Origin: a virus
Taxonomy: Duplodnaviria; Heunggongvirae; Uroviricota; Caudoviricetes
Virus record (IMG/VR): IMGVR_UViG_3300042259_000129
Direction: 5' to 3' (one strand)
Length of the DNA stretch: 64,000 bases
Below are positions 13,834-62,293 of the stretch, in pieces (within the stretch, counting starts at the first letter, position 1; each line of letters opens with the position of its first letter). The translations under genes and the position numbers were made by a program. The notes beneath the pieces are model-generated. The model was not told the origin of the DNA. It searched no databases and saw only the letters and a program-made list of their open reading frames with translations.

Positions 13834-14478
13834 CTAATTAACAATTGAAAATAATCTTACTTCTTCTTTAGAAGCTAAATCTACCATTACTCCAGAACAT
13901 GTGATTGTAGTAGATTCTTTATTATTTAATTTAAAAGTTGTACCATGTTGTACAGATTCATAATCTAAGAAAATAGCGGGGAACTCTAATATAACTGGGT
14001 TATCTAAATCATTATTTACAATAATATGAAAATCAATATACATAAACTGGTTAAGACCTGTATTAAAAGCACTTTTAATATCGACATGTAATTGAGCTAA
14101 AGCACTCTTATTTAAATTAAGAAATAGTTCATTATCATTTTTCACAGTAAAATAATAGGGAGGGGCAACATCAGATCTCCTCTTAATAATTACTGTATCA
14201 ATATCAACTACAGCATAATCCTTTACATCCTTTCTAACATGTTTGATTGATTTAATATTTAAAAAATATTTTTCCAATGTTGCTTGCAGAAAATTAGAAG
14301 ATTTTACAAATTCCTTTTCTGAGGGCACTTCAAAAACTAGTCGACCTGGTAAAACTACGCCATCTTCTTGAGAAGAAAAATGTGTAACATTACTTAAGTT
14401 AACTCTTGTGAATGTACTCTGATCACAACCCATAAAAAATAGACCCATACAAATTAGACACATAATTTTCTTAAACAT
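13834..14478 (-). CDS. Putative lipoprotein.
   Basis: N-terminal signal peptide with a lipobox (LFFMGC). Confidence 0.55.
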   Translation of the reverse strand: MFKKIMCLICMGLFFMGCDQSTFTRVNLSNVTHFSSQEDGVVLPGRLVFEVPSEKEFVKSSNFLQATLEKYFLNIKSIKHVRKDVKDYAVVDIDTVIIKRRSDVAPPYYFTVKNDNELFLNLNKSALAQLHVDIKSAFNTGLNQFMYIDFHIIVNNDLDNPVILEFPAIFLDYESVQHGTTFKLNNKESTTITCSGVMVDLASKEEVRLFSIVN

Positions 14479-28485: not shown

Positions 28486-28563
28486 GGCCCTGTAACTCAG
28501 TTGGAATAGAGTACGATCCTTCTAAGTTCGATGTCACAAGTTCGATTCTTGTCAGGGTCACCA
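28486..28563 (+). tRNA. tRNA-Arg (anticodon UCU) with an encoded CCA end.
   Basis: Manual cloverleaf fold. Acceptor GGCCCTG/CAGGGTC, D-arm ACTC..GAGT, anticodon loop CTTCTAA, T-arm ACAAG-TTCGATT-CTTGT. Confidence 0.75.
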
Positions 28564-28566
28564 TTT

Positions 28567-28640
28567 ACCCCTATAGTTCAGTTGGTTAGAACCCCCGGCT
28601 CATAACCGGAATGTCCCAAGTTCAAATCTTGGTAGGGGTA
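28567..28640 (+). tRNA. tRNA-Met or Ile2 (anticodon CAU). No encoded CCA.
   Basis: Manual cloverleaf fold. Acceptor ACCCCTA/TAGGGGT, D-arm GTTC..GAAC, anticodon loop CTCATAA, T-arm CCAAG-TTCAAAT-CTTGG. Confidence 0.7.
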
Positions 28641-28661
28641 CAATCTTCAAAGGAAAACATT

Positions 28662-37696: not shown

Positions 37697-39187
37697 ATGT
37701 CAATAATATGTCTTATATGCAATATAGAATGTAAATCTATGAAAGCACTTAAAACACATTTAACAAAAAAACATAATATATCTTTTAAATTTTATTATGA
37801 TAATAATCTTAAAGTAGATAATATGGACGGTATATGTAAGTTATGTAAAACAAATGAAACATATTTTATAAGTTCTTCTGGCAAATATAAACCATTGTGC
37901 GAAAAATGCGGCAAATCCAGGAGTATTCATGCACTAAAAATTTTATATGGAGAGGAAGAAGGAACTAGAAGATACAATGAAATCTGTGCTGGTTGTAGTA
38001 GAGACTTAGCATTCTTCACCAACAAATATGGAGAGGAAGAAGGAACTAGAAGATACAATGAATGAGTTAATAAAACAAAAAATAATAAACAAAATTTTAT
38101 AAAACGACACGGGGAAGAAGAAGGATTAAAGAAATATGACGAATATTGTTTATCAAAATCTTTATCTAAAGAAAAATTTATTTATAAGCATGGAGAGGAA
38201 GAAGGAACTAGAAGATACAATGAATGATCAAAATCACATCTTACATTAGAAGAATATATATCAAAGCATGGAGAGGAAGAAGGAACTAGAAGATACAATG
38301 AATGAGTAAATTCTGCTAAAAATTCCAAAGAAAACTTTATTATTAGATATGGAGAGGAAGAAGGATTAAAGAAATATAATGAATATTGTAATAAAGTTGG
38401 CTGTGGTTTAAACAATTTGATTAGAATATATGGAGAGGAAGAAGGAACTAGAAGATATAAAGAAGTTTGCAGTAACAAAAAAGGCATTGGCTCTTTAAAA
38501 TATTGTATTAATAGATACGGAAAGGAAGAAGGAGCTTCTTTTTATAATAGATGAAGTAAGTCTAGTGTGCCTACATTAGATAATATGATTAGAATATATG
38601 GAAAGGAAGAAGGAACTAGAAGACATACCATATTTAGAGAAAAATCAAAACAAAATTTACACAATTTTATAGATAGATATGGAGAAGATGAGGGCATAAA
38701 AAGATATAATTTGTTTTGTGAAAGATCATCAGGAAATACTAGGTCGGTTTCCAAAGAATCCTTAAAGTTATTTTATGAATTGATAGATTGATTATTTGAA
38801 GAGAATATTGCAGATTTTAAAGATATTAAATGTGGTATACCAGAAAGTTCTGAATTGTGTATAACATACAATAATAGAAAAAATAGATTTATGTTTGATT
38901 TTACATTATTTGATAAACTTATAATAGAATATAATGGCAATGGATCTCATGTAAGAGATACATGATCTATAGATAAAAAAGAACAATGAAGGCATGTTTG
39001 AGACAAAGAATGTGACTATATTAAAGCACTTGAAAGGGACGCCTTTAAAAATAATATCGCTATTAATGCTGGTTATAAAATTCTTACTGTATGAGCAGAA
39101 GATAAATTTGAAGAAAATTTAAAGTTATGTAAAAAATTTATATTGGAAGAAATGATTGATGAAGAAACTGGAGAAGTAATTCTCTAA
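37697..39187 (+). CDS. Zinc-finger protein with 11 tandem YGEEEGTRRYNEW-type repeats and a C-terminal Vsr/DUF559-like (PD-(D/E)XK) endonuclease-type domain. About 497 aa.
   Basis: N-terminal CLICNIEC...H..H and CKLCK...CEKCGK. Repeats xxYGEEEG(T/L)(R/K)(R/K)YNE(W/Y). C-terminal FDFTLFDKLIIEYNGNGSHV...ILTVWAED. Confidence 0.55.
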
Positions 39188-39257: not shown

Positions 39258-39749
39258 TTACATTTTGTATTTGATTTGCAACTTCTTTAAAATTCTTTTT
39301 GTTCCAAAATGAATAGGCGCAGGAATATCTTTAAAAGATGTAATTCATTTATAAGCTGAATGTTCCCAATTTAACTTTGGTTCAAATATCTCATCCACAG
39401 TTATTATAAAGGTTGTAAAAGTAAAATCTCCATCCTCAAAAATATCAAATGGTTTTTCTGAAATTTTAAAGGTGCCATTATATCGCAGTTCTTCTTTAAA
39501 TTCTCTTTTGGCTGTTATTTTTGGTCATTTATCAGAATCATCAACTTTTCCCGAAACAACAATGCTTCAAGTTCCTGCCTCTTTGACTTTTTTCCATCCG
39601 TCTATAGTATCTTTTTGTCTTTGAAGAACTAGGAAGGCTTTTTCCTTTTTAGCATATACAATGGCACCAGCAGCCGCCTTTCCAAAATAGGACCTTTTAG
39701 AATCACCACTCTTTAGATCCATTCTCAAAAATTTAATAAATTGTGTCAT
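39258..39749 (-). CDS. NUDIX hydrolase-like protein, with 3 TGA.
   Basis: Nudix-box-like AKREFKEELRYNG downstream of GKAAAGAIVYAKK. Starts right after a terminator hairpin. Confidence 0.5.
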
Positions 39750-39756
39750 AATGAAA

Positions 39757-39772
39757 GGGAGCCGAAGCTCCC
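39757..39772 (-). terminator. Hairpin GGGAGC-CGAA-GCTCCC downstream of the giant ORF.
   Basis: 6-bp GC-rich stem with a tetraloop. The identical element recurs at 58915-58930. Confidence 0.5.
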
Positions 39773-39778
39773 GTCTCC

Positions 39779-42700
39779 TTAACCTTTACATTCATCAACT
39801 AACATCAGAAACTGAGAATATAAACCTTCGGGGTCATCTACCATAAACTCATCAGTAAATGGAACTCGAACTACACCATTAAGATCTTTATCCGTATGGA
39901 AGGTTATACCGATACCAAACTGATTTGAATCAACATACATCTTGTTAGATTTCTTAATAACTTTCTTTTCAAAATCTTCCCAAGGCATAATTTCTTTAGC
40001 AGTTGGTACTGTACACTGATGAAACACAAATGTAATAACATTTTTACTTTTAATCATTTCTTGCTCCTGAAGATAATCTGCAAATCGTTTAAAATACTTG
40101 TTTTCTTTTAAAGCATTAGGATATTTAGCTTTAAGTTCTTTAATTCTTTTCTTATTTGTGAACATTACTTTATGAGCTTTTACAATGTTAATTTGAGCTT
40201 GAGGTCAACAAATTGCTCATTCGGGAGAACGAATTGAGTCGTTTCCGGTACCTGCAACATGATGATGAAGTCCATAATCCCCTAGATTTACTTCACATTC
40301 ATAGATTGTCCCAACTGTTCCTTCTCTTCTTGAGTAACCATCATCTCCAAGATATTGAGCAGCCTTTTCAATAACATTAGTTACATAAATTCCACCAACA
40401 GTATCTATTGTTCTCCAATGATATAAATCTGTTGGATAATCACTATATGTAACTCGTTTACCAGATTCTCGTGATGATACAGGAAAATATCCATTTTCTA
40501 AATATTCAATATAATCATTAGACTCTTCAATAGCATCTCCATCACTTTTAGGTTTAACTAAAAGCATATTATGAATATCAAGCATTCTGCCAACAGTAGA
40601 AGAATCGTTTGCAGGAATAACAGTAAACCCAAATCTTAAAATAAAGTTTGATGCTGTTAATCCTGAAGCATGGAAAGCTGGAATAAGTTCACTAGCTCCA
40701 AATCTTGTTCTAAATTGATCAAATTCAGGATATTTCATATTAACATTAAAGGATTCAATAAATTCAACAGCAGAATTTCCATGTTTTCCATTATAATATT
40801 TAGAATATTCAACAGACTTTTCATTAAGCTGATCTTGAGTTTCCTCAATTTTTTCCAAATTGATATCTGGAATGAGAGCATCTCCCTTTAATACTTGTTC
40901 AACACGCACAAAGTAATCTGCCCATTTTTCTCTTGGCTTCTTTCTAAGCATTGCTCCCTTAAATTCAAAGTTATTATATTTCAATAATGTTTTGATTCTA
41001 GAAGGGGTTAATTTAATTGAGGGTTTTAAAGGGTTATCATCATTGAAAATATCTTTTAATAGTGGATAAATCAAAAGTTGATCTTTCAATGTATTAACTA
41101 ATGAATTAGCAATTTTATTAGGAAATGCATCTAATAGATCATCAAGTTTTTGAAGTTTATCTTTATCAGATAACATATCTAACATGATATATTCAAGACT
41201 ATTGGTCTTATTTAAAAGTCTTTTACCAGAACTAATTTTATCCCAAACCCCTTGAACATTATCATTCTTAAAATATTCTATTAGGGCATCTACTCCATAA
41301 TCGTCATATAACTTTCCAATCATGAAAGAATTTCGATCTAAATATTCCGCAATATTTTCAGTAGCTTCCTTAGATGTATAGTATCCTGCTCTATTAAGAT
41401 ATTTTAATCTTCAATCATTATCTTCATGATTTAATAAGAAATCATTTATTTTGTCTTTTGAATCGAAATATTCTAAGGCAAAAGATTTTTTTAATTCATC
41501 TTGTTCATATACCGGAAAGTTATATACATAATCATATACATTTTTTTTATATCTTTCATCGTCCATATTGTCTGCTAAAAATTGTTGAACAAAAGCTTTA
41601 TCTAAAAATCCTTTCGAAATTAAATAATTAAAATCTCTTAGAATATGAAGACCTGAAATCTTAATTTTATATTTTACATGTTCTAACCATATATCTTTAT
41701 ATGAATTAAAAGTTTTTAAATTAAACCTATAGTCTTTAACTGAAAAGAAACCATATGTACTATCATCATTCTCTTTAATTATAGTTTTAATGGCTGCGTC
41801 TATCTTTATGCTTTTTGATAAATCATAATCACTATTTTCAAAATATTTAATAAAATTCTGTAATCTGTATGCTACTATTTTATTTAAATCTATAAACAAA
41901 TCGGGGTTCTTAAATATAAAATCTGCTTCAATTCCCCAATTTTGCACCGTACTCATATCGAACTTATCATCTATTAATTTTGTTAATAGTGTATAAAAAA
42001 GTAGAAACTCAGGCATAGATGTATTAAGCTTCCTAAAAATATTTTTAATAACTTTAACTTCGCCAATAATATATTTGGGGTGATAATTGTTTTTTGAGTC
42101 TCTTTCTATAGTTTTGACCAAATACGCAAATTTGGTCCAGTTTCCTTTATATGCAAAATAATTCAAACAATAAAGTCCAACCAAACTAAATTCTTCTCGT
42201 TCACTAATATAAACATCTATCCATTTAAATCCTGGGCCAGTCTCAAGTGCAAGATCCTCAATCAAATATGAATGATCTGTTTGATATTCTTTATGTAAAA
42301 AAAATGCCAAAGTAAGATACTTTCTAAGATCATCATTACTTGATTTTACTCGTTCAATAAATTCAGAATATGGTAAATTATAGTGTTCAATATATTCTTT
42401 TAAAGTTCAATTATTATCTTTCAAATGTTTTAAATAAAATTCATGAAAGGAGGTTGGATTTGTTCTCTTCACTAACTCAGAATTAAGAATTTCATATGAT
42501 AATTTATCACCAATTTTGTCTTTAAGTGTCAACATTGAATCAGCTCATCTATATGCTGCACTTTTTTTATCATCTAATAAAATCCATTTTTTTGCTATTT
42601 CTTTTGATGATCTACTCTCAATAGAAATCACAACATTTATAGTATCCAAAGTCATATATTCAGCAAAATGCCCTAAATAATCTACAATTTCAATTTTTTG

Positions 42701-43984
42701 ATCCCCATAAATGCCATGAATAAGAGTCTCAAAATCGTTTCCCCGCAGCATAATAATTGCTCTAATTATATTTTTTTCATTCAAACAATCTGGGAATGTA
42801 GATTTAAGAATAGAATCTAATTCATCAATATATTTGTCAGGAACTTTAGAAGCAATTTTTAAAGAGCCTCTTCATTCTGAAAAATATTTTTTTAAATCTT
42901 CAATAAAAAAAGAAGAAAAAGTTGTATATAGATCTTTTATATTATCTTTCATCTGAAGAGTTCTAACCATATATCTAAAATCAAAAAGAAGTGAATCTTT
43001 AAATGCATATTCAATAAAATATGGAGACAATCTAGAAAAATCTCCTTTAATTGGGGTATATAATTTTTCGATTGTAGGGAATTGCTTTTTGATTTCATCT
43101 GGAATTTCGTCAAACAAAAACTGCTTCATTACTGTTCTTGAAGGAGTATATCTCATATAAAGACTTCTAACAATAGTTTGAATATCACTAGAAGATTTAC
43201 TATTAGAAACCAGATACATTAGAAGATAATATGTGCTTAATTCAAGATCTAGTTGATTTGCATTAGTATATAAAGTAATATCCTGCCAAGTTGGAGCAGG
43301 AATTTCTTTTGGCTCATCAGTAGGGATAACTTGAGTTTTAACAGGAATATTTGTAGTCTTAGGTTCGCCTGTTAATGCAGATTTGACTGACGAAACTTTT
43401 GGGACAACAGTATCAACAGTTACAGGTGCGTCTGTAGCATCCTGGGTACTATCTGAAGGACTTGAAAGCCTTTTATATAATACCCTAAATTCATGTGCTC
43501 TCTTATGCTGCATCGCTAAACTGTAGAGTTCTGGAAGCATATCAGATAAAGTTTTATTTCCTTTCTTAAAATCTTTAAGAAGAGCGGAAATTTGTGGATA
43601 TGGGTATAAAGATGAAACTTTTATTCTTTTGATAATTTCGTCTCTAAACATATTTTCGTCCAGCCCACCCAATGTTCCCATTTTAATTTTGGCGAGCATT
43701 TTGGTAATCTTGGTCATAGTCATGTCAGGTATAACTTTTTTGTCATCAATGACTTTCAAAATAACCATTAGATCAGAATCTGTATCAGTAACTTTGTCTA
43801 GTCTTACTGTAGACTGTTTAAAATATTGAATGAGTTTGTTCTCATCTTTATATTTTGCATACAGACCAAGAAAGCCAAGAAAATTAATCCAAAATTCATT
43901 TGTAATTTTCTTTTCTTTTGCAAGGAATTTATCTTTCCCTTCTTGATCTTTTCATATATGATTTTCTATTAAATAATCTCTCAT
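39779..43984 (-). CDS. Giant hypothetical protein, 1401 aa, with at least 8 in-frame TGA. Function unknown. The C-terminal third has a speculative R...STV...ExE arrangement reminiscent of ADP-ribosyltransferases.
   Basis: Five track ORFs (42872, 42545, 41411, 40217, 39779) share one frame and are joined only by TGA. ATG at 43984 with a GGAG ribosome-binding site, preceded by a TAA. Confidence 0.6.
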
Positions 43985-44019
43985 TTAAACTGACTCCTAC
44001 TAAAGCATATTTTAATTAT

Positions 44020-44304
44020 TTATTCAATTTCATCTTTTCCTTCTTTCTCTGAAGGAATTTCTTCTTTATCTAACATTTCTAAAAGGCCTTTAAATTCACC
44101 AATATGAACTTTTTCTTCTCGAGCAACATCAAGAAGAACTTCCTTTACTTTTTTGTTTTTTACTTTTCTAGCCATCAATTGATAAAGAACAATAGCATCC
44201 TGTTCAGCAACAATAGCCATTCTTAAAATTTCATCATCAGTTTTATCATTGAGATTCATCTCATTAGATAACATCTCATTAAGCATAAATTCTTTAAATT
44301 TCAT
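44020..44304 (-). CDS. Small ferritin-like (rubrerythrin-type diiron) protein.
   Basis: ILRMAIVAEQDAIVLYQLMA...VAREEKVHIGEF (ExxH motif). Confidence 0.4.
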   Translation of the reverse strand: MKFKEFMLNEMLSNEMNLNDKTDDEILRMAIVAEQDAIVLYQLMARKVKNKKVKEVLLDVAREEKVHIGEFKGLLEMLDKEEIPSEKEGKDEIE

Positions 44305-46160: not shown

Positions 46161-46700
46161 CTATTTTAGATGGGGATATTTGTCAAAGAAACCCTCAGCC
46201 TTGAGATCATCTCAATCTCCGATAATATCTACGTCATATGGGGTCTTATTATTTGTAACTTCATTATCCATTCTTTTAATAATTATATCTCTTATTTGTT
46301 CAGTTTTAACATCAATTGATCTAGGAGCAAATCCTTCTGTCCAATCAAGAACATTCATGAAAAATGTATCAGCATCAATTTCTTTTCCTAAATTTGATGT
46401 GGCATATTCATATTCTTTGGCCTTTTTTTGATTGAAGGACCAAGCATTTAAAATTTGTTCTTCTTTTAAATCTTTTAGTGCAAATCCTTTATCACCTTTC
46501 TTTAGGTTGATAATTCCTTCAGGGAAAATGTGTTTAAAATTTTTAATGAAAAGAAAAATATAATCTTTAGCTCATTTATTTCTCAATTCAAAATTCTTTT
46601 TATGAAAAGCTTTAAATTCCTGCTTTGTCATATCTGAATAGAATTTTGTATTTACATTTTCATCAAGCATTAATTGTTTTAATTTATTTCTTATTTCCAT
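46161..46700 (-). CDS. Hypothetical protein, 179 aa, with 2 TGA.
   Basis: Continuous frame from ATG 46700 to TAG 46161. Partly overlaps plus-strand track ORF 46180..46431. Confidence 0.5.
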
Positions 46701-47764: not shown

Positions 47765-48142
47765 TATTGTTTCACCAATCAATATAATTCTATATACTAT
47801 ACCCTCCGTACCAAGTTAATATATTAACTATCATATTTCTCCGGAGTTGTAAATAGAGAAAATTCAAGTTTATACCACATCTCGAATATTTTTTTATCAG
47901 AAAGTCTGGAAATTTTGAGATTTTTCATGTTTCCAGGAAGCTTAATTATTTCAATAACTTAGAAATCCACCAAAATCTTAGTTTTCCTAATAATATCAAT
48001 AACTTACGAGAAATCCACCAAAATCTATAGAAAAACGTAATGTTTTATACATCATTTTCTTAGGATTTCGAATAGTTAATAATTTTAATAATTTAGGATT
48101 TCTTAAAATCCTCTTTTTCTCCATTAGAAATTTCTATAAATA
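47765..48142 (+). repeat. Copy 2 of the ~370-bp noncoding repeat module, in a divergent intergenic region.
   Basis: Same blocks as 25507..25872. It also carries an internal duplication of aaatccaccaaaatct. Confidence 0.8.
48135..48142 (+). promoter_or_regulatory. T4-type late promoter (TATAAATA).
   Basis: 35 nt upstream of ATG 48177. Confidence 0.5.
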
Positions 48143-50107: not shown

Positions 50108-51553
50108 ATGTCAAATACTATTAGAATTAAAAGACGCGCTATAGGTGGTGCCATAGGTGCCCCTTCTTCTCTTGAAAATGCAGAATTAGCATTTAATGAG
50201 GCAGATGATACTTTGTATTATGGTAAAGGAACAGGTGGTGTAGGGGGTTCTGCTACAACTATAGAACCTATTGGTGGTATAGGAGCCTTTGTTTCAAAAA
50301 ATAATATTGATCAAACTATAGACGGAGAAAAAACTTTTGTAGGTACAGTTATTGCTCCAACTCAGGATTCTACTGATGATTCAACAAAGGTAGCTACAAC
50401 AGCTTTTGTAAAATCAATAGGATATGTTCCTGCCCCTACTGGTGTAGTTACGGGAACATTTACAAAGGTTACTATAAATTCAAACGGATATGTTACGCTA
50501 GGTTCAACACTTAGTGCTTCTGATATCCCTTCATTAACAGCTTCCAAAATATCTGATTTTGATACCCAAGTAAGATTATCCGGTTTAGACCAAATGGCCG
50601 AACCAGAATCAAATGTATCATTTAATGATGTTAGAATTACAAATCTTGCAACACCTGTTAATGATAATGATGCTGCAAATAAATTATATGTTGATACTGC
50701 AATTCAGGGCATTAAACCAAAGAACTCTGTAAAGGCAGCGACAACAGGTAATATCACATTATCTGCAACACAAACAATTGATGATATTTCTGTTATAGAT
50801 GGGGATAGAGTATTAGTAAAAAACCAAACAACAAGTTCACAGAATGGTATTTATATTGTTTCTGGTAGTGCATGGACTCGCGCTGCGGATATGAATTCAT
50901 GGGATGAAGTTGTTTCAGCATTCGTATTTGTTGAGGAAGGTACTACAAACGCCGATACTGGTTGGTTATGTTCCGCAAATAGTGGTGGTACATTAGATAC
51001 AACGGCGATTACATGGGTTCAGTTTTCAAGCGCAGGATCAATAACTGCTGGGACGGGTTTATCAAAAGATGGCAATACACTTAATGTTGGTGCAGGAACG
51101 GGTATCACAGTTGGTGCTGATGATGTTGCTTTAACAGGACAGTCTTTAGCATTACATAATTTATCTACAAATGGGTTAATAACAAGAACTGGATCTGGAA
51201 CTGTTACTTCAAGAACTATTTCTACTTCAGGAACTGGCATATCCGTCGCAGATGGAAATGGCGTATCAGCTAACCCAACTATTTCATTGTCTACTGCATT
51301 GTCTACTGTTGGTACCTTAACCCCAGCAGCTGATAGAATTGCTTATTATACAAGTGCTTCTACTGCCTCCTTAACAGCATTAACATCTTTTGGTAGATCA
51401 TTAATTGATGATGATAATGCTTCAACTGCAAGAACTACTTTAGGATTAGGAACAATTGCTACTCAAGCAGCATCAAGCGTTGCAATTACTGGCGGCTCAA
51501 TTACAAACTTAACAACTTTTGATGGGATCACTATTGACGGTGGAACATTCTAA
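50108..51553 (+). CDS. Tail fibre-like protein.
   Basis: N-terminal anchor motif IRIKRRAIGGAIGAPSSLENAELAFNEADDTLYYGKG. The rest is Gly/Thr/Ser-rich and beta-rich. A TATAAATA lies at 49982. Confidence 0.6.
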   Translation: MSNTIRIKRRAIGGAIGAPSSLENAELAFNEADDTLYYGKGTGGVGGSATTIEPIGGIGAFVSKNNIDQTIDGEKTFVGTVIAPTQDSTDDSTKVATTAFVKSIGYVPAPTGVVTGTFTKVTINSNGYVTLGSTLSASDIPSLTASKISDFDTQVRLSGLDQMAEPESNVSFNDVRITNLATPVNDNDAANKLYVDTAIQGIKPKNSVKAATTGNITLSATQTIDDISVIDGDRVLVKNQTTSSQNGIYIVSGSAWTRAADMNSWDEVVSAFVFVEEGTTNADTGWLCSANSGGTLDTTAITWVQFSSAGSITAGTGLSKDGNTLNVGAGTGITVGADDVALTGQSLALHNLSTNGLITRTGSGTVTSRTISTSGTGISVADGNGVSANPTISLSTALSTVGTLTPAADRIAYYTSASTASLTALTSFGRSLIDDDNASTARTTLGLGTIATQAASSVAITGGSITNLTTFDGITIDGGTF

Positions 51554-53963: not shown

Positions 53964-53971
53964 TATAAATA
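53964..53971 (+). promoter_or_regulatory. T4-type late promoter (TATAAATA).
   Basis: About 50 nt upstream of the gp18 start. Confidence 0.5.
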
Positions 53972-56098: not shown

Positions 56099-58051
56099 AT
56101 GATTATTTGTTGAGACAATCTAGAAAAACATAATATTAAATTAAGCAATAGAGGAAATTTTAGAGGTAATGATGGTACATATTATTATCATGATTTATGT
56201 CTAGAATGTGGTGAGCCTTTTTTAAGTAAAGGAAAACATAATATACAATATTGTTCATATGAATGTATGACTAAGTCTCAAATATATAGAGAAAAAATTG
56301 GAAATGAAAAAGCACTTCTTAATGAATCTACTGATATTATATTAACAAAAGAGGAAATTTTAGAATTAAGAGTTAAATACCCCAAAAGATATATTAAAAT
56401 ATTAAAAAACAAATATCCAAAAACAATACAACAAATAGAATTGTTTTTTAATGACATTAAATCCAATATTACTAACAGTATATTATCTCAAAAAATATTC
56501 CATTATGTTTTTAATTTAAAAAATATTCCTGTATGCCCTCTTTGTGGAAATATATTACCATTTAACACATTATTAGAGTCATGGGGATATAGAAAATTTT
56601 GTTCAAGAATATGTGCTATAAATAATCCAGATTTAATAAGAAAACGTGATCCTAACCAAGATGTTAAAAAGGAAAGAAATAATAGAGGAATTAAAATTTT
56701 AAAATCTTCAGATATTAAAGTTTATTCATTAGAAAGAACCAATAAAATTTTTCTTTTATTTTTAGCTAAATTCAATTATGATTTTCAAAATGTTGCCATA
56801 AAAATTCTTAACAAGTCCCCAAAATTATATAAAAGTATAAACATCTATTATGCGGATTTTACTCATAGAGAAATATATTACCTTATTCTAAATAATAATC
56901 CAAAAGAAAGAATATGTTATATTTGTAAAAAAGAGAAAACACCATTATTAAGAAATGGTTATAGAAGCTATTGTACTAATTGTGGAAATAAACATAGTAA
57001 TATTATTGCGAGATTTAAAAAATATCCATTAATATATAATTATTGTAAAGATAATGATTATGAAATGATAGCATCTAGATATGAATTTGCTCTTAGTCCT
57101 CTAAAAACGACCGATGTTAAATGTTTAAGATGTAAAAATATCAGACCATTATCTATAGAATTAATAAATAAAGGAGTTTCTTGTTCCTGTAGAGTTAAGG
57201 GAGGAACTAGTAAGGCAGAAAACGAAATAGCAAAATTTTTGAATATTAATCATCGCAGGGGAAATAAAGAAATTTTAGATGGTCTTGAGATAGATATCTT
57301 TATTCCAAATTCCAATTTGGGGATTGAATATGATGGTATATATTATCATTCTGAAATTTCAGGAAATAAAAATAAAAAATATCATATAAATAAGACAGAT
57401 ATTTGTGATGAAAATAATATTCAACTTATTCATATATTTGAAACGGAATGGAAAGATAAACAATCTATAGTTAAATCTGCACTTCTTTCTAAGTTGGGTA
57501 TTTTTGAAAATAGAATATATGCTAGAAAATGCGAAATAAGATCTCTTACTTTTGAAGAATCTAATATCTTTCTTCTTCAAAATCACCTCCAAGGATATTG
57601 TAATTCGTCTATTAGATATGGGCTTTTTTATAATGATGAACTTGTTTCATGTATGACTTTTGGTAAGAGAAAAATAACAGGAAAAACTAAACTTGAGCTT
57701 TTAAGATTTTGTAATAAACTTAATACACAAGTCATTGGGGGAGCAAGTAAATTATTTAAACACTTTGTTAGAAACAATGAATTTGAAGAAATAATTTCCT
57801 ATGCAGATCGTAGATGGTCTAATGGTAATTTATATGAACAACTTGGGTTTGAATTTAGTCATAAGAGTGCTCCGTCCTATTGGTACATTATTAATGGGAA
57901 GTTGGTACATAGATCCGTTTATATGAAACATAAATTACCAAGTTTATTAAAGGATTTTGATCCTAATCTTACTGAATGGGAAAATATGCAAATGAATGGA
58001 TTTGATAGAATTTGGGATTGTGGGTGTTTAGTTTATAGGTATGCAAGGTAG
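56099..58051 (+). CDS. Multi-zinc-finger protein with a Vsr/DUF559-like (PD-(D/E)XK) endonuclease-type domain. About 650 aa with 1 TGA.
   Basis: At least six CxxCG...C knuckles (CLECGEPF..CSYEC, CPLCGNILPF..CSRIC, CYICKKE..CTNCGNK, CLRCKN...). The core LEIDIFIPNSNLGIEYDGIYYHSE...IQLIHIFETEW is the same domain family as the C-terminus of 37697..39187. ATG 56099 is upstream of track ORF 56267, in frame across one TGA. Confidence 0.55.
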
Positions 58052-60237: not shown

Positions 60238-60245
60238 TATTTATA
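60238..60245 (-). promoter_or_regulatory. Late promoter (TATAAATA on the minus strand) for gp23. Part of a 45-bp promoter-plus-RBS cassette duplicated at 61438.
   Basis: AAATTCCTCCTAAGAATTGTTCCTTATAAATTTATTTATA is present upstream of both gp23 and gp22. Confidence 0.6.
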
Positions 60246-61437: not shown

Positions 61438-61445
61438 TATTTATA
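61438..61445 (-). promoter_or_regulatory. Late promoter (TATAAATA on the minus strand) for gp22.
   Basis: Same cassette as at 60238. Confidence 0.6.
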
Positions 61446-61705: not shown

Positions 61706-62293
61706 CTAGATGTTTTTAGAAATCTGATCGATTACTTGAAAAATCCTCTTTCTATATTCTTGTTTAGCTTGTTCAATAAGCTTTTCTTGATTAGAAGTAC
61801 CAAAATCTACACCCTCTAACACGCCATTAACCCAGCTCCCCAAGTTGGATGGTTGGCTAACAATGTCCCAACAAATTAGATTAAAGTCTTCATTAACATG
61901 ATTTGTTTTTTCGTTTACAGTTCCAAGACCACGAGAGCTAATACCAATTCGAGCACCATCTTCAATTAGATTTTTTACAATCTGGCCACATGGAGTTGAA
62001 AGAACTTTTGCTTTTCCCATGACATGATTTCCCTCTCAAACAAGGTCCTCAATTAAAATAGCAGCACGCTCAAGGGTAATTGTATTTGAAGAGGGGTGTT
62101 CAAGTTCACCTAAAGCAGATTTATTTGAAATATTTTCTCTAAGCTTATCTACTTCTCTTTCAAGAATTCGCTTTGGGTAAATTCGGCCGTTGCGATTTCT
62201 TTCTTCAGCAGTTGAAAAAATTCCCTCAATAAAAAGAGACTTTTCGCTCTTCTTTGTTGAAATATTATATGTTGTTTCCGTAATAAGTTTCAC
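61706..62293 (-). CDS. gp21: Prohead core protease gp21-like, with 1 TGA and a GTG start.
   Basis: ERNRNGRIYP, GELEHP and IGISSRGLGTV match T4 gp21 (ERNRNGRVY, YLDHP, LGISSRGLGSV). GGAGG ribosome-binding site before the GTG. Confidence 0.85.

Follow-up and report, generated by a model that had tools for sequence, protein, structure and literature searches.

We analysed a 64,000-nucleotide (nt) stretch of viral DNA (IMG/VR record IMGVR_UViG_3300042259_000129; the whole stretch is called the window below), whose sequence marks its source as a T4-like myophage of ∼30% G+C that decodes TGA as Trp. Its minus strand carries a giant gene that the standard code breaks up and whose 1401-residue product very probably contains, in its C-terminal third, a PARP-like ADP-ribosyltransferase (ART) domain of the H-Y-E clade; the assignment follows from a family-profile match, a predicted fold and invariant catalytic residues. 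A short N-terminal leader and a late-promoter motif suggest, by analogy with the Alt protein of phage T4, that the product is packaged in the phage head and injected. We give a probability of about 0.55 to the whole explanation, in which a TGA-recoded T4-like phage makes a multidomain PARP-like ART with an Alt-like life history.

A giant frame hidden by TGA-as-Trp recoding

A codon scan of the giant gene revealed no internal TAA or TAG between its ATG at 43984, which directly follows an in-frame TAA, and its terminal TAA at 39781–39779. This bears out a preliminary description of the DNA, which had proposed a single frame of 1401 amino acids (aa) starting at that ATG behind a GGAG. The same description counted 'eight or more' TGA codons; there are exactly seven, at codons 11, 371, 480, 526, 858, 1256 and 1260. 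It was right that the separate open reading frames (ORFs) of the region form one frame when TGA is read as Trp; the standard code yields at least six of them (298, 79, 42, 299, 368 and 128 aa).

Greedy ORF sets gave a coding density of 0.68 for the window under code 11 and of 0.89 with TGA as sense, as against 71% with TAG and 79% with TAA as sense. The 78 ORFs chosen under code 4 contain 118 in-frame TGA and 172 TGG codons, and are terminated by TAA (63) or TAG (15), never by TGA. The window is like other code 4 (TGA-as-Trp) phages in that TGA is sense throughout and TAA and TAG are the only terminators; among such phages, this one is a T4-like myophage of low G+C whose window lacks a suppressor tRNA. 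TGA is missing from several genes that are presumably highly expressed, namely those for the major capsid protein, the scaffold and the gp46-like ATPase, and a 481-aa ORF at 50108–51553.

Homology is continuous across all seven TGAs of the giant gene. Four of the seven are aligned with Trp in P0001–P0004, which are full-length metagenomic relatives of the giant protein (1400–1419 aa, 35–53% identity). TGA 1256 corresponds to Trp in 98 of 109 diverse relatives, including those of the standard-code cultured phages Aeh1 and Ps15, and TGA 11 to Tyr, Trp or Phe in 115 of 120. In all but a few of 44 related IMG/VR loci, the homologue is a single standard-code frame of ∼1000–1430 codons. We conclude that the giant frame is one genuine gene, concealed by the use of TGA for Trp, because it has full-length relatives and one-frame standard-code homologues, because Trp is found at aligned TGA positions, and because the gain in coding density is window-wide.

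No tRNA-Trp(UCA) suppressor was found in the window, the only tRNAs of which are tRNA-Arg(TCT) and tRNA-Met(CAT) at 28486–28641, or in the related loci L003, L048 and L049, which contain no tRNAs at all; the suppressor may be encoded in another part of the genome or come from the host. L048 (JGI 3300042278, Ga0451661_000200; 131 kb) is a contig of a sister phage, 91–93% identical to the window in the ART region. Standard-code calls by JGI cut its giant gene into at least six pieces; UvsW and other genes are broken up as well in these public calls, which leave many short 'hypothetical proteins'.

A predicted PARP-like ART domain

Searched directly, the window protein matched nothing relevant in Pfam or among PDB sequences, and the PARP domain was seen only via family profiles and structure. 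When PDB sequences were searched with a 35-sequence profile of the family, 70 matches were obtained, the best 60 of which were all PARP1, PARP2, PARP3 or tankyrase (best E 5.9e-8). In the profile alignment, PaFHGTG of the family falls on LWHGSR of PARP1, and GRMLGDGIYFSNVIDKVAQY on a second PARP1 stretch. P0009, a 31% identical relative, itself clears the Pfam PARP model PF00644 (29.7 bits versus a cutoff of 26.7).

For structure prediction, P0001 stood in for the window protein, its residues 1–1043 and 1044–1407 being modelled separately. The AlphaFold2 model of residues 1044–1407 had a mean predicted local distance difference test (pLDDT) score of 85.7; over the ART core, P0001 is 76% identical to the window protein. 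The top 50 Foldseek matches of this model in the PDB were all the PARP1 catalytic or ART domain (probability 1.00, E ∼3e-8). The domain thus resembles those of PARP1, PARP2, PARP3 and tankyrase (PF00644) in the predicted fold of the proxy, in profile match and in equivalent active-site residues. It differs from eukaryotic PARPs in sequence (identity ∼14–16%) and in having Arg or Lys where 'G-Y-M-F' of PARP1 has Tyr, and none of the WGR, BRCT, zinc-finger or helical regulatory domains of PARPs was detected in the giant protein.

Near-invariant positions in an alignment of the C-terminal region of 109 relatives are H1068-G1069, P-a-F-H1105-G-T-G, R1117, G1119, G-R-M-L (1132–1135), G-i-Y1200, K1207, Y1211, S1253-P-E1255-W and Q1264. 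H1105, Y1200, K1207, Y1211 and E1255 are conserved to 98–100%, K1207 and Y1211 each in 109 of 109 sequences. We take H1105, Y1200, K1207 and Y1211 to be the equivalents of H862, Y896, K903 and Y907 of PARP1. E1255 appears to correspond to PARP1 E988 when SPEW-AICWPQAQINIV is aligned by eye to NEY-IVYDIAQVNL, past the end of the HMMER match. A 62-aa insertion in the ART domain is common to the window protein and P0001–P0004.

An ADP-ribosyltransferase near the C-terminus had been proposed in the preliminary description, and the profile and the proxy-model fold agree with that; the clade is, however, H-Y-E and not the Alt-like R-S-E that had been read from an R...S-T-V...Y-E-C-E arrangement. That R-S-ExE triad was rejected on poor conservation. 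R1092 is Arg in 29 of 109 relatives (27%), T1130 is Thr in 11 (10%) and R1094 is unconserved, while the glutamates E1229 and E1231 are Glu in 73 (67%) and 43 (39%), respectively; the predicted catalytic Glu is E1255 instead. R-S-E enzymes were absent from the sequence-profile and fold matches listed, as were the Alt, VIP2 and exotoxin families from the Pfam and PHROG matches of the giant protein.

A PARP-like ART joined to a large unrelated domain was reported in bacteriophage Aeh1 by Otto et al. (2005; PMC1266365), and Iyer et al. (2022; PMC9503650) place the PART (PARP) family with the commonest ARTs of viruses. The assignment of the domain thus has precedents, and the giant protein is a newly found and somewhat divergent addition to the giant phage PARP-like ARTs, a family described earlier.

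Family and overall architecture

The giant protein matches phrog_18612 ('unknown function') with an E value of 9.8e-82. An exhaustive HMMER search, for which the stop-free fragment aa 859–1255 was the query, gathered, at E values of 0.001 or less, 265 clusters (50% identity), the majority of 1000–1570 aa. Homologues of ∼1200 aa were found by tblastn in T4-like phages of Stenotrophomonas, Aeromonas, Ralstonia and Pseudomonas, and three of these records are annotated 'ADP-ribosyltransferase' or 'poly(ADP-ribose) polymerase catalytic domain protein'. The window as a whole has no megablast relative among deposited phage genomes.

Mapped onto the query, conservation is high over the N-terminal ∼175 residues, which a variable linker follows, and over the C-terminal 450 residues. 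The middle region (about aa 236–900) is conserved by sequence only in 4–7 close relatives; it is 20–32% identical to P0001–P0004, and a jackhmmer search started from it recruited just eight proteins. In the model of P0001 residues 1–1043 (pLDDT 80.5), the N-terminal domain is compact and all-alpha and is joined to a long body, likewise all-alpha, by a disordered linker (aa 180–227); in the C-terminal model, a low-confidence connector precedes the terminal alpha/beta domain. Foldseek searches with the N-terminal and middle regions gave only weak HEAT/ARM-type solenoid similarity in the PDB, with template modelling scores below 0.25, and only family members, such as a phiAS5 protein, among viral models. 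These fold searches indicated no relation to Alt or to known head proteins.

The architecture of a conserved N-terminal domain, linker, large helical middle, PARP-like ART and C-terminal domain is shared with Aeh1 ORF131c (1211 aa), Ps15 SmaMPs15_000165 (1202 aa), phrog_18612 and the 'PART' family (Iyer et al., 2022). The Aeh1 and Ps15 proteins are 27–31% identical to the window protein over the C-terminal 400 residues and have the same H/Y/K/Y/E residues. They differ in that the window gene has seven TGA (Trp) codons and encodes ∼200 more residues, that its ART domain has the 62-aa insertion and H-A-S-G for H-G-T-G, and that its neighbours are ferritin-like and NUDIX genes, not gp32/dexA or an ADP-ribosylglycohydrolase (ARG) gene.

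Leader, prohead protease and late-promoter motif

The prohead protease gp21 of T4 cleaves after Glu in (L/I)-x-E (PMC9026906; PMC5694885). It removes capsid-targeting propeptides of 10–19 residues from the T4 internal proteins (PMC5694885; PMC9026906) and six residues, at ITE-6, from Alt (PMC5694885). The giant protein begins with a comparable candidate propeptide, MRDYLIE. In 109 of 120 relatives the protein starts with a leader of 4–23 residues ending in [L/I/V/F]-x-E, in which the Glu is invariant and the residue two before it is Leu (79), Ile (21), Val (7) or Phe (2); N-S/T-L/I/F-Y/W follows the Glu. Residues 1–6 are the sole low-confidence part of the otherwise very confident model of the N-terminal domain.

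A gp21-type protease, presumed to be the processing enzyme, is encoded in the window. Its gene has a GTG start and three in-frame TGAs, and ATG-only calling chose a spurious plus-strand ORF in its place. The product starts VKLITE, itself an I-x-E motif.

The late-promoter element of T4 is TATAAAT (PMC3037559). Among the 35 family genes with a placeable start, 24 have NATAAATA 34–65 nt upstream of it, compared with 28 of 364 other ORFs at the same loci (nominal Fisher p 4e-16); the window gene is in this respect like most members of the phrog_18612 family. In the window, the motif starts 40 nt before the giant gene, a spacing similar to the 42–58 nt at the genes for capsid, scaffold, sheath and gp13. 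The giant gene has the relaxed NATAAATA form, the exact TATAAATA being absent upstream of it. A scan for sigma-70 promoters showed no enrichment (60 sites, with 58 expected). Across the window, NATAAATA was found 13–77 nt upstream of 12 of the 78 ORFs, including those of gp13, the major capsid protein, the scaffold and the sheath (for example at 48135–48142 and 53964–53971 on the plus strand and at 60238–60245 and 61438–61445 on the minus strand), and the phage thus seems to have late promoters of the T4 type.

Two features that recur across the family, the L/I-x-E leader and the late-promoter motif, appear to be new. By analogy with Alt, they suggest packaging and injection, and we rate the chance that the giant protein is packaged as even. 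The preliminary description had called it 'possibly injected'; the leader, the promoter motif and the gp21-type protease favour this indirectly, and it is from them that we infer both steps. The proposed likeness to T4 Alt is that of a late-made ART with a short propeptide ending in (I/L)-x-E (ITE-6 in Alt, LIE-7 here), processed by a gp21-type protease and delivered together with the DNA (PMC5694885). The giant protein differs from Alt in being twice as large and in its clade (H-Y-E, as opposed to R-S-E), with no sequence relationship between the two, and its packaging is a proposal.

Gene neighbourhood

As the preliminary description had stated, a GC hairpin (39757–39772) and a NUDIX-like gene (39258–39749) lie immediately downstream of the giant gene on the same strand. 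The R-E-F-K-E-E (R-E-x2-E-E) core of the Nudix box is intact when read from the sequence, and NCBIfam gave no finer class for the protein. The giant gene adjoins a NUDIX gene only in the window, in its sister L048 and in L003, a 50% identical relative. Within three genes of the homologue in the 44 IMG/VR relatives, no NUDIX, ARG or NadR gene was detected by phmmer, a search of limited sensitivity. An 'ART + NUDIX' pair as a conserved two-gene system was rejected, since NUDIX was undetected beside the gene in those relatives. In Aeh1, the ARG-like ORF132c adjoins the homologue ORF131c, and in Ps15 NadR and a phosphoribosyltransferase lie 3 kb from the homologue. Judged from such gene neighbourhoods, the giant gene is in a loose, recurrent association with NAD/ADP-ribose metabolism and not in a fixed two-gene system.

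A stem lies at the same place in L003 (∼14236–14280) with a different sequence, CGGGAAGA/TCTTCCCG as against GGGAGC/GCTCCC in the window. The only Shine–Dalgarno sequence near the NUDIX gene (AAGGAG) is 5′ of the stem, and the NUDIX ATG is 7–8 nt 3′ of it. The stem-loop could be a terminator, an attenuator or a hairpin that brings the Shine–Dalgarno sequence close to the start codon, as a hairpin does in T4 genes 25 and 38.

Directly upstream of the giant gene, a 94-aa ferritin-like protein is encoded at 44020–44304 on the minus strand (Pfam Rubrerythrin, E 1.6e-11; the encapsulin ferritin-like cargo EncB family of NCBIfam, E 1.6e-14, under the cutoff). It begins MKFKEFMLNE, with Leu and Glu at residues 8 and 10, positions reported to be important for processing of the T4 IPIII targeting sequence; this leader is conserved in L003 and L048, and the protein could be a second packaged one. 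In the same minus-strand cluster, a 179-aa ORF (46161–46700) starts MEIRNKLKQLMLDE (LDE-14). Its L003 counterpart starts MSIVNKLKNLMLNE, and an extra 145-aa ORF of L003 (L003 9564–10001) starts MDLLKRINSYMNE. The cluster around the giant gene may be a set of internal head proteins, on weak statistics.

The UvsW helicase gene lies upstream of the giant gene in the same orientation. Elsewhere the window encodes head proteins (major capsid, scaffold, portal and the gp21-type protease), homologues of gp13 and gp15, a baseplate hub/lysozyme, a wedge protein, tape-measure-like proteins and a gp46/47-type nuclease. Convergent with the NUDIX gene is a 496-aa ORF (37697–39187, plus strand) whose product has a C2H2-type zinc finger at its N-terminus and repeats YGEEEGTRRYNEW ∼13 times in tandem; it matches phrog_22677 in five stretches. 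It has nine TGA and no TGG codons, and TATAAATA lies 28 nt upstream; it is possibly a mobile or endonuclease-type gene. A 650-aa Cys-rich ORF (56099–58051, plus strand), directly downstream of the sheath gene, may likewise be an inserted mobile or endonuclease-like gene.

Table 1. Coordinates of the features described, as positions in the window
Feature	Position	Strand	Basis or remark
Giant gene, 1401 sense codons plus TAA, TGA as Trp	39779..43984	-	Translation, codon scan
GGAG ribosome-binding site	43994..43997	-	13–10 nt upstream of the giant gene ATG
Leader MRDYLIE (aa 1–7), ending L-I-E and followed by NHIW; candidate capsid-targeting propeptide and gp21-type cleavage site	43964..43984	-	Leaders of relatives
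Conserved all-alpha N-terminal domain (aa 8–175)	43460..43963	-	84% identical to P0001, conservation within the clade being highest here; pLDDT 91–97
Pro-, Thr-, Val- and Asp-rich disordered linker (aa 176–235)	43280..43459	-	pLDDT 31–46 in the relative's model; alignment
Fast-evolving all-alpha middle, solenoid-like (aa 236–1039)	40868..43279	-	All-helical model, narrow conservation
Predicted PARP-like ART domain (aa 1040–1290)	40115..40867	-	Family profile; AlphaFold and Foldseek of the proxy
His1105, motif P-A-F-H-A-S-G	40670..40672	-	His in 107 of 109 relatives; aligned to 'LWHGS' of PARP1
Clade-specific 62-aa insertion between G-R-M-L and G-G-I-Y, donor-site region	40394..40579	-	Two residues in 108 of 108 other relatives
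Tyr1200, motif G-G-I-Y	40385..40387	-	Tyr in 109 of 109 relatives; HMMER alignment to PARP1
Glu1255, predicted catalytic Glu, S-P-E-W	40220..40222	-	Glu in 109 of 109, S1253 in 109 of 109; next codon TGA
TGA codons 1256 and 1260, directly after the predicted catalytic Glu (S-P-E-W-A-I-C-W-P)	40205..40219	-	W1256 is Trp in 98 of 109
Conserved C-terminal alpha/beta domain (aa 1291–1401)	39782..40114	-	Motifs F-x-d-G-x-I-P and G-P; pLDDT ∼87–96
Stem-loop GGGAGC-TTCG-GCTCCC, 6-bp GC stem, TTCG loop	39757..39772	-	Separates the stop of the giant gene from the NUDIX start
NUDIX hydrolase gene, 163 aa	39258..39749	-	Pfam NUDIX, E 3.9e-11; phrog_1198
AATAAATA, T4 late-promoter-like −10 element	44017..44024	-	Begins 40 nt upstream of the giant gene ATG; overlaps the preceding gene's stop codon
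gp21-type prohead core serine protease, presumed processing enzyme	61706..62293	-	Pfam Peptidase_S77, E 7.5e-37

Discussion

We infer every step of the Alt-like life history proposed here for the giant protein. The gene would be transcribed from its own T4-type late promoter, the leader ending in L-I-E would direct the protein into the prohead core, and the gp21-type protease would clip the leader after Glu7. The protein would be packaged with the DNA and ejected into the next host. There the ART domain, having bound NAD+, would attach ADP-ribose, singly or in chains, to a macromolecular target, modifying host targets as soon as infection begins. Incorporation into the head and recognition of targets would fall to the N-terminal domain and the fast-evolving helical middle. 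The NUDIX enzyme encoded downstream would plausibly handle ADP-ribose or NAD-derived products, a weak and clade-specific link.

Several points weigh against this proposal. The window protein itself has no Pfam ART/PARP match even at E values up to 10, and the ART structure is that predicted for a 76% identical relative standing in for it. In the nicotinamide-site motif, the window protein, P0005 and P0006 have H-A-S-G (with a GCT codon for the Ala in the window); Gly, as at G863 in the H-G-S/T motif of PARP1, stands at this place in 105 of 109 relatives. Together with the 62-aa insertion near the donor site, the change from Gly to Ala could alter activity. [LIV]-x-E occurs by chance within the first 14 residues of ∼15% of window ORFs, and E-N-S-L-Y could owe its conservation to a structural role and not to cleavage. 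The loci behind the promoter statistic include near-duplicates, and its true significance is lower than the nominal value. In many relatives the gene sits between the replication-type genes gp32 and dexA and not among head genes. A 160-kDa protein would need unfolding to pass the tail, and the literature was found to hold no virion proteomics or biochemistry for any family member.

The main alternative is an active PARP-like ART that is not packaged and works late inside the producing cell, where it might modify host or phage proteins or nucleic acids, counter NAD+- or ADP-ribose-based defence, or regulate nearby replication and recombination proteins. Profile, model and Foldseek results apply to such an enzyme unchanged, and it would be at home beside UvsW in the window and gp32 or dexA in many relatives, and among the varied NAD/ADP-ribose genes that recur nearby (NUDIX here, ARG in Aeh1, NadR and phosphoribosyltransferase in Ps15). 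We think it somewhat unlikely, because a purely intracellular enzyme needs neither a leader nor a late promoter, whereas a variable-length L/I-x-E leader and a dedicated late-promoter motif are the means that T4 uses for packaged proteins like Alt. That the protein is the toxin half of an ART/ADP-ribose-hydrolase toxin–antitoxin or superinfection-exclusion pair, as has been proposed for an ART–ARG pair of Aeromonas phages, seems to us improbable. ORF132c adjoins ORF131c in Aeh1, and the NUDIX gene adjoins the giant gene in the window. However, neither ARG nor NUDIX was seen within three genes in the 44 IMG/VR relatives (by phmmer only, with its limited sensitivity), NUDIX enzymes usually fail to remove protein-linked ADP-ribose completely, and an architecture of 1200–1500 aa with a conserved N-terminal domain and a late promoter is unlike the compact toxins of toxin–antitoxin systems.

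Even less probable is a structural or scaffolding virion protein with a catalytically dead ART-like domain. The large size and helical solenoid-like body would suit such a role, as would the Gly-to-Ala change in the nicotinamide-site motif and the 62-aa insertion of this clade, but in the 109 diverse relatives, the window protein included, the active-site H, Y, K, Y and E of PARPs are kept at 98–100%, more than a dead domain would be expected to keep. There is hardly any probability left for the view that the region is not one gene, its TGAs being real stops within separate genes or a decayed pseudogene, or that TGA encodes a residue other than Trp. The window has no tRNA-Trp(UCA), and the JGI calls on the sister contig do split the region. 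Against this, homology runs unbroken through the seven TGAs, Trp or another aromatic residue occupies the aligned positions of standard-code relatives, the density gain extends over the window, and the catalytic strand would end one residue past the catalytic Glu.

The preferred reading, an injected PARP-like ART, can be extended to a whole family of T4-like phages, this TGA-recoded one included. They would package a PARP-type enzyme of ∼140–160 kDa by means of a T4-style propeptide and inject it, with possible poly-ADP-ribosylation of bacterial targets at the onset of infection and the hypervariable middle as the part that recognizes targets. We regard this extension as speculative, and on present evidence as unlikely.

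ADP-ribosylation by injected Alt of T4 is the textbook instance of instant host takeover. A PARP-type enzyme may reach the host in the way Alt does in many T4-like phages, both uncultured ones and those that infect Aeromonas, Stenotrophomonas, Pseudomonas and Ralstonia; if this is true, it would be the first phage-delivered ART of the H-Y-E (PARP) clade. The leader and the late-promoter motif turn an 'uncharacterised giant protein with PARP domain' into a directly testable hypothesis. In recoded phages, standard-code calling shatters the gene and cuts the protein one residue past the catalytic Glu, and such enzymes are therefore invisible in default annotations.

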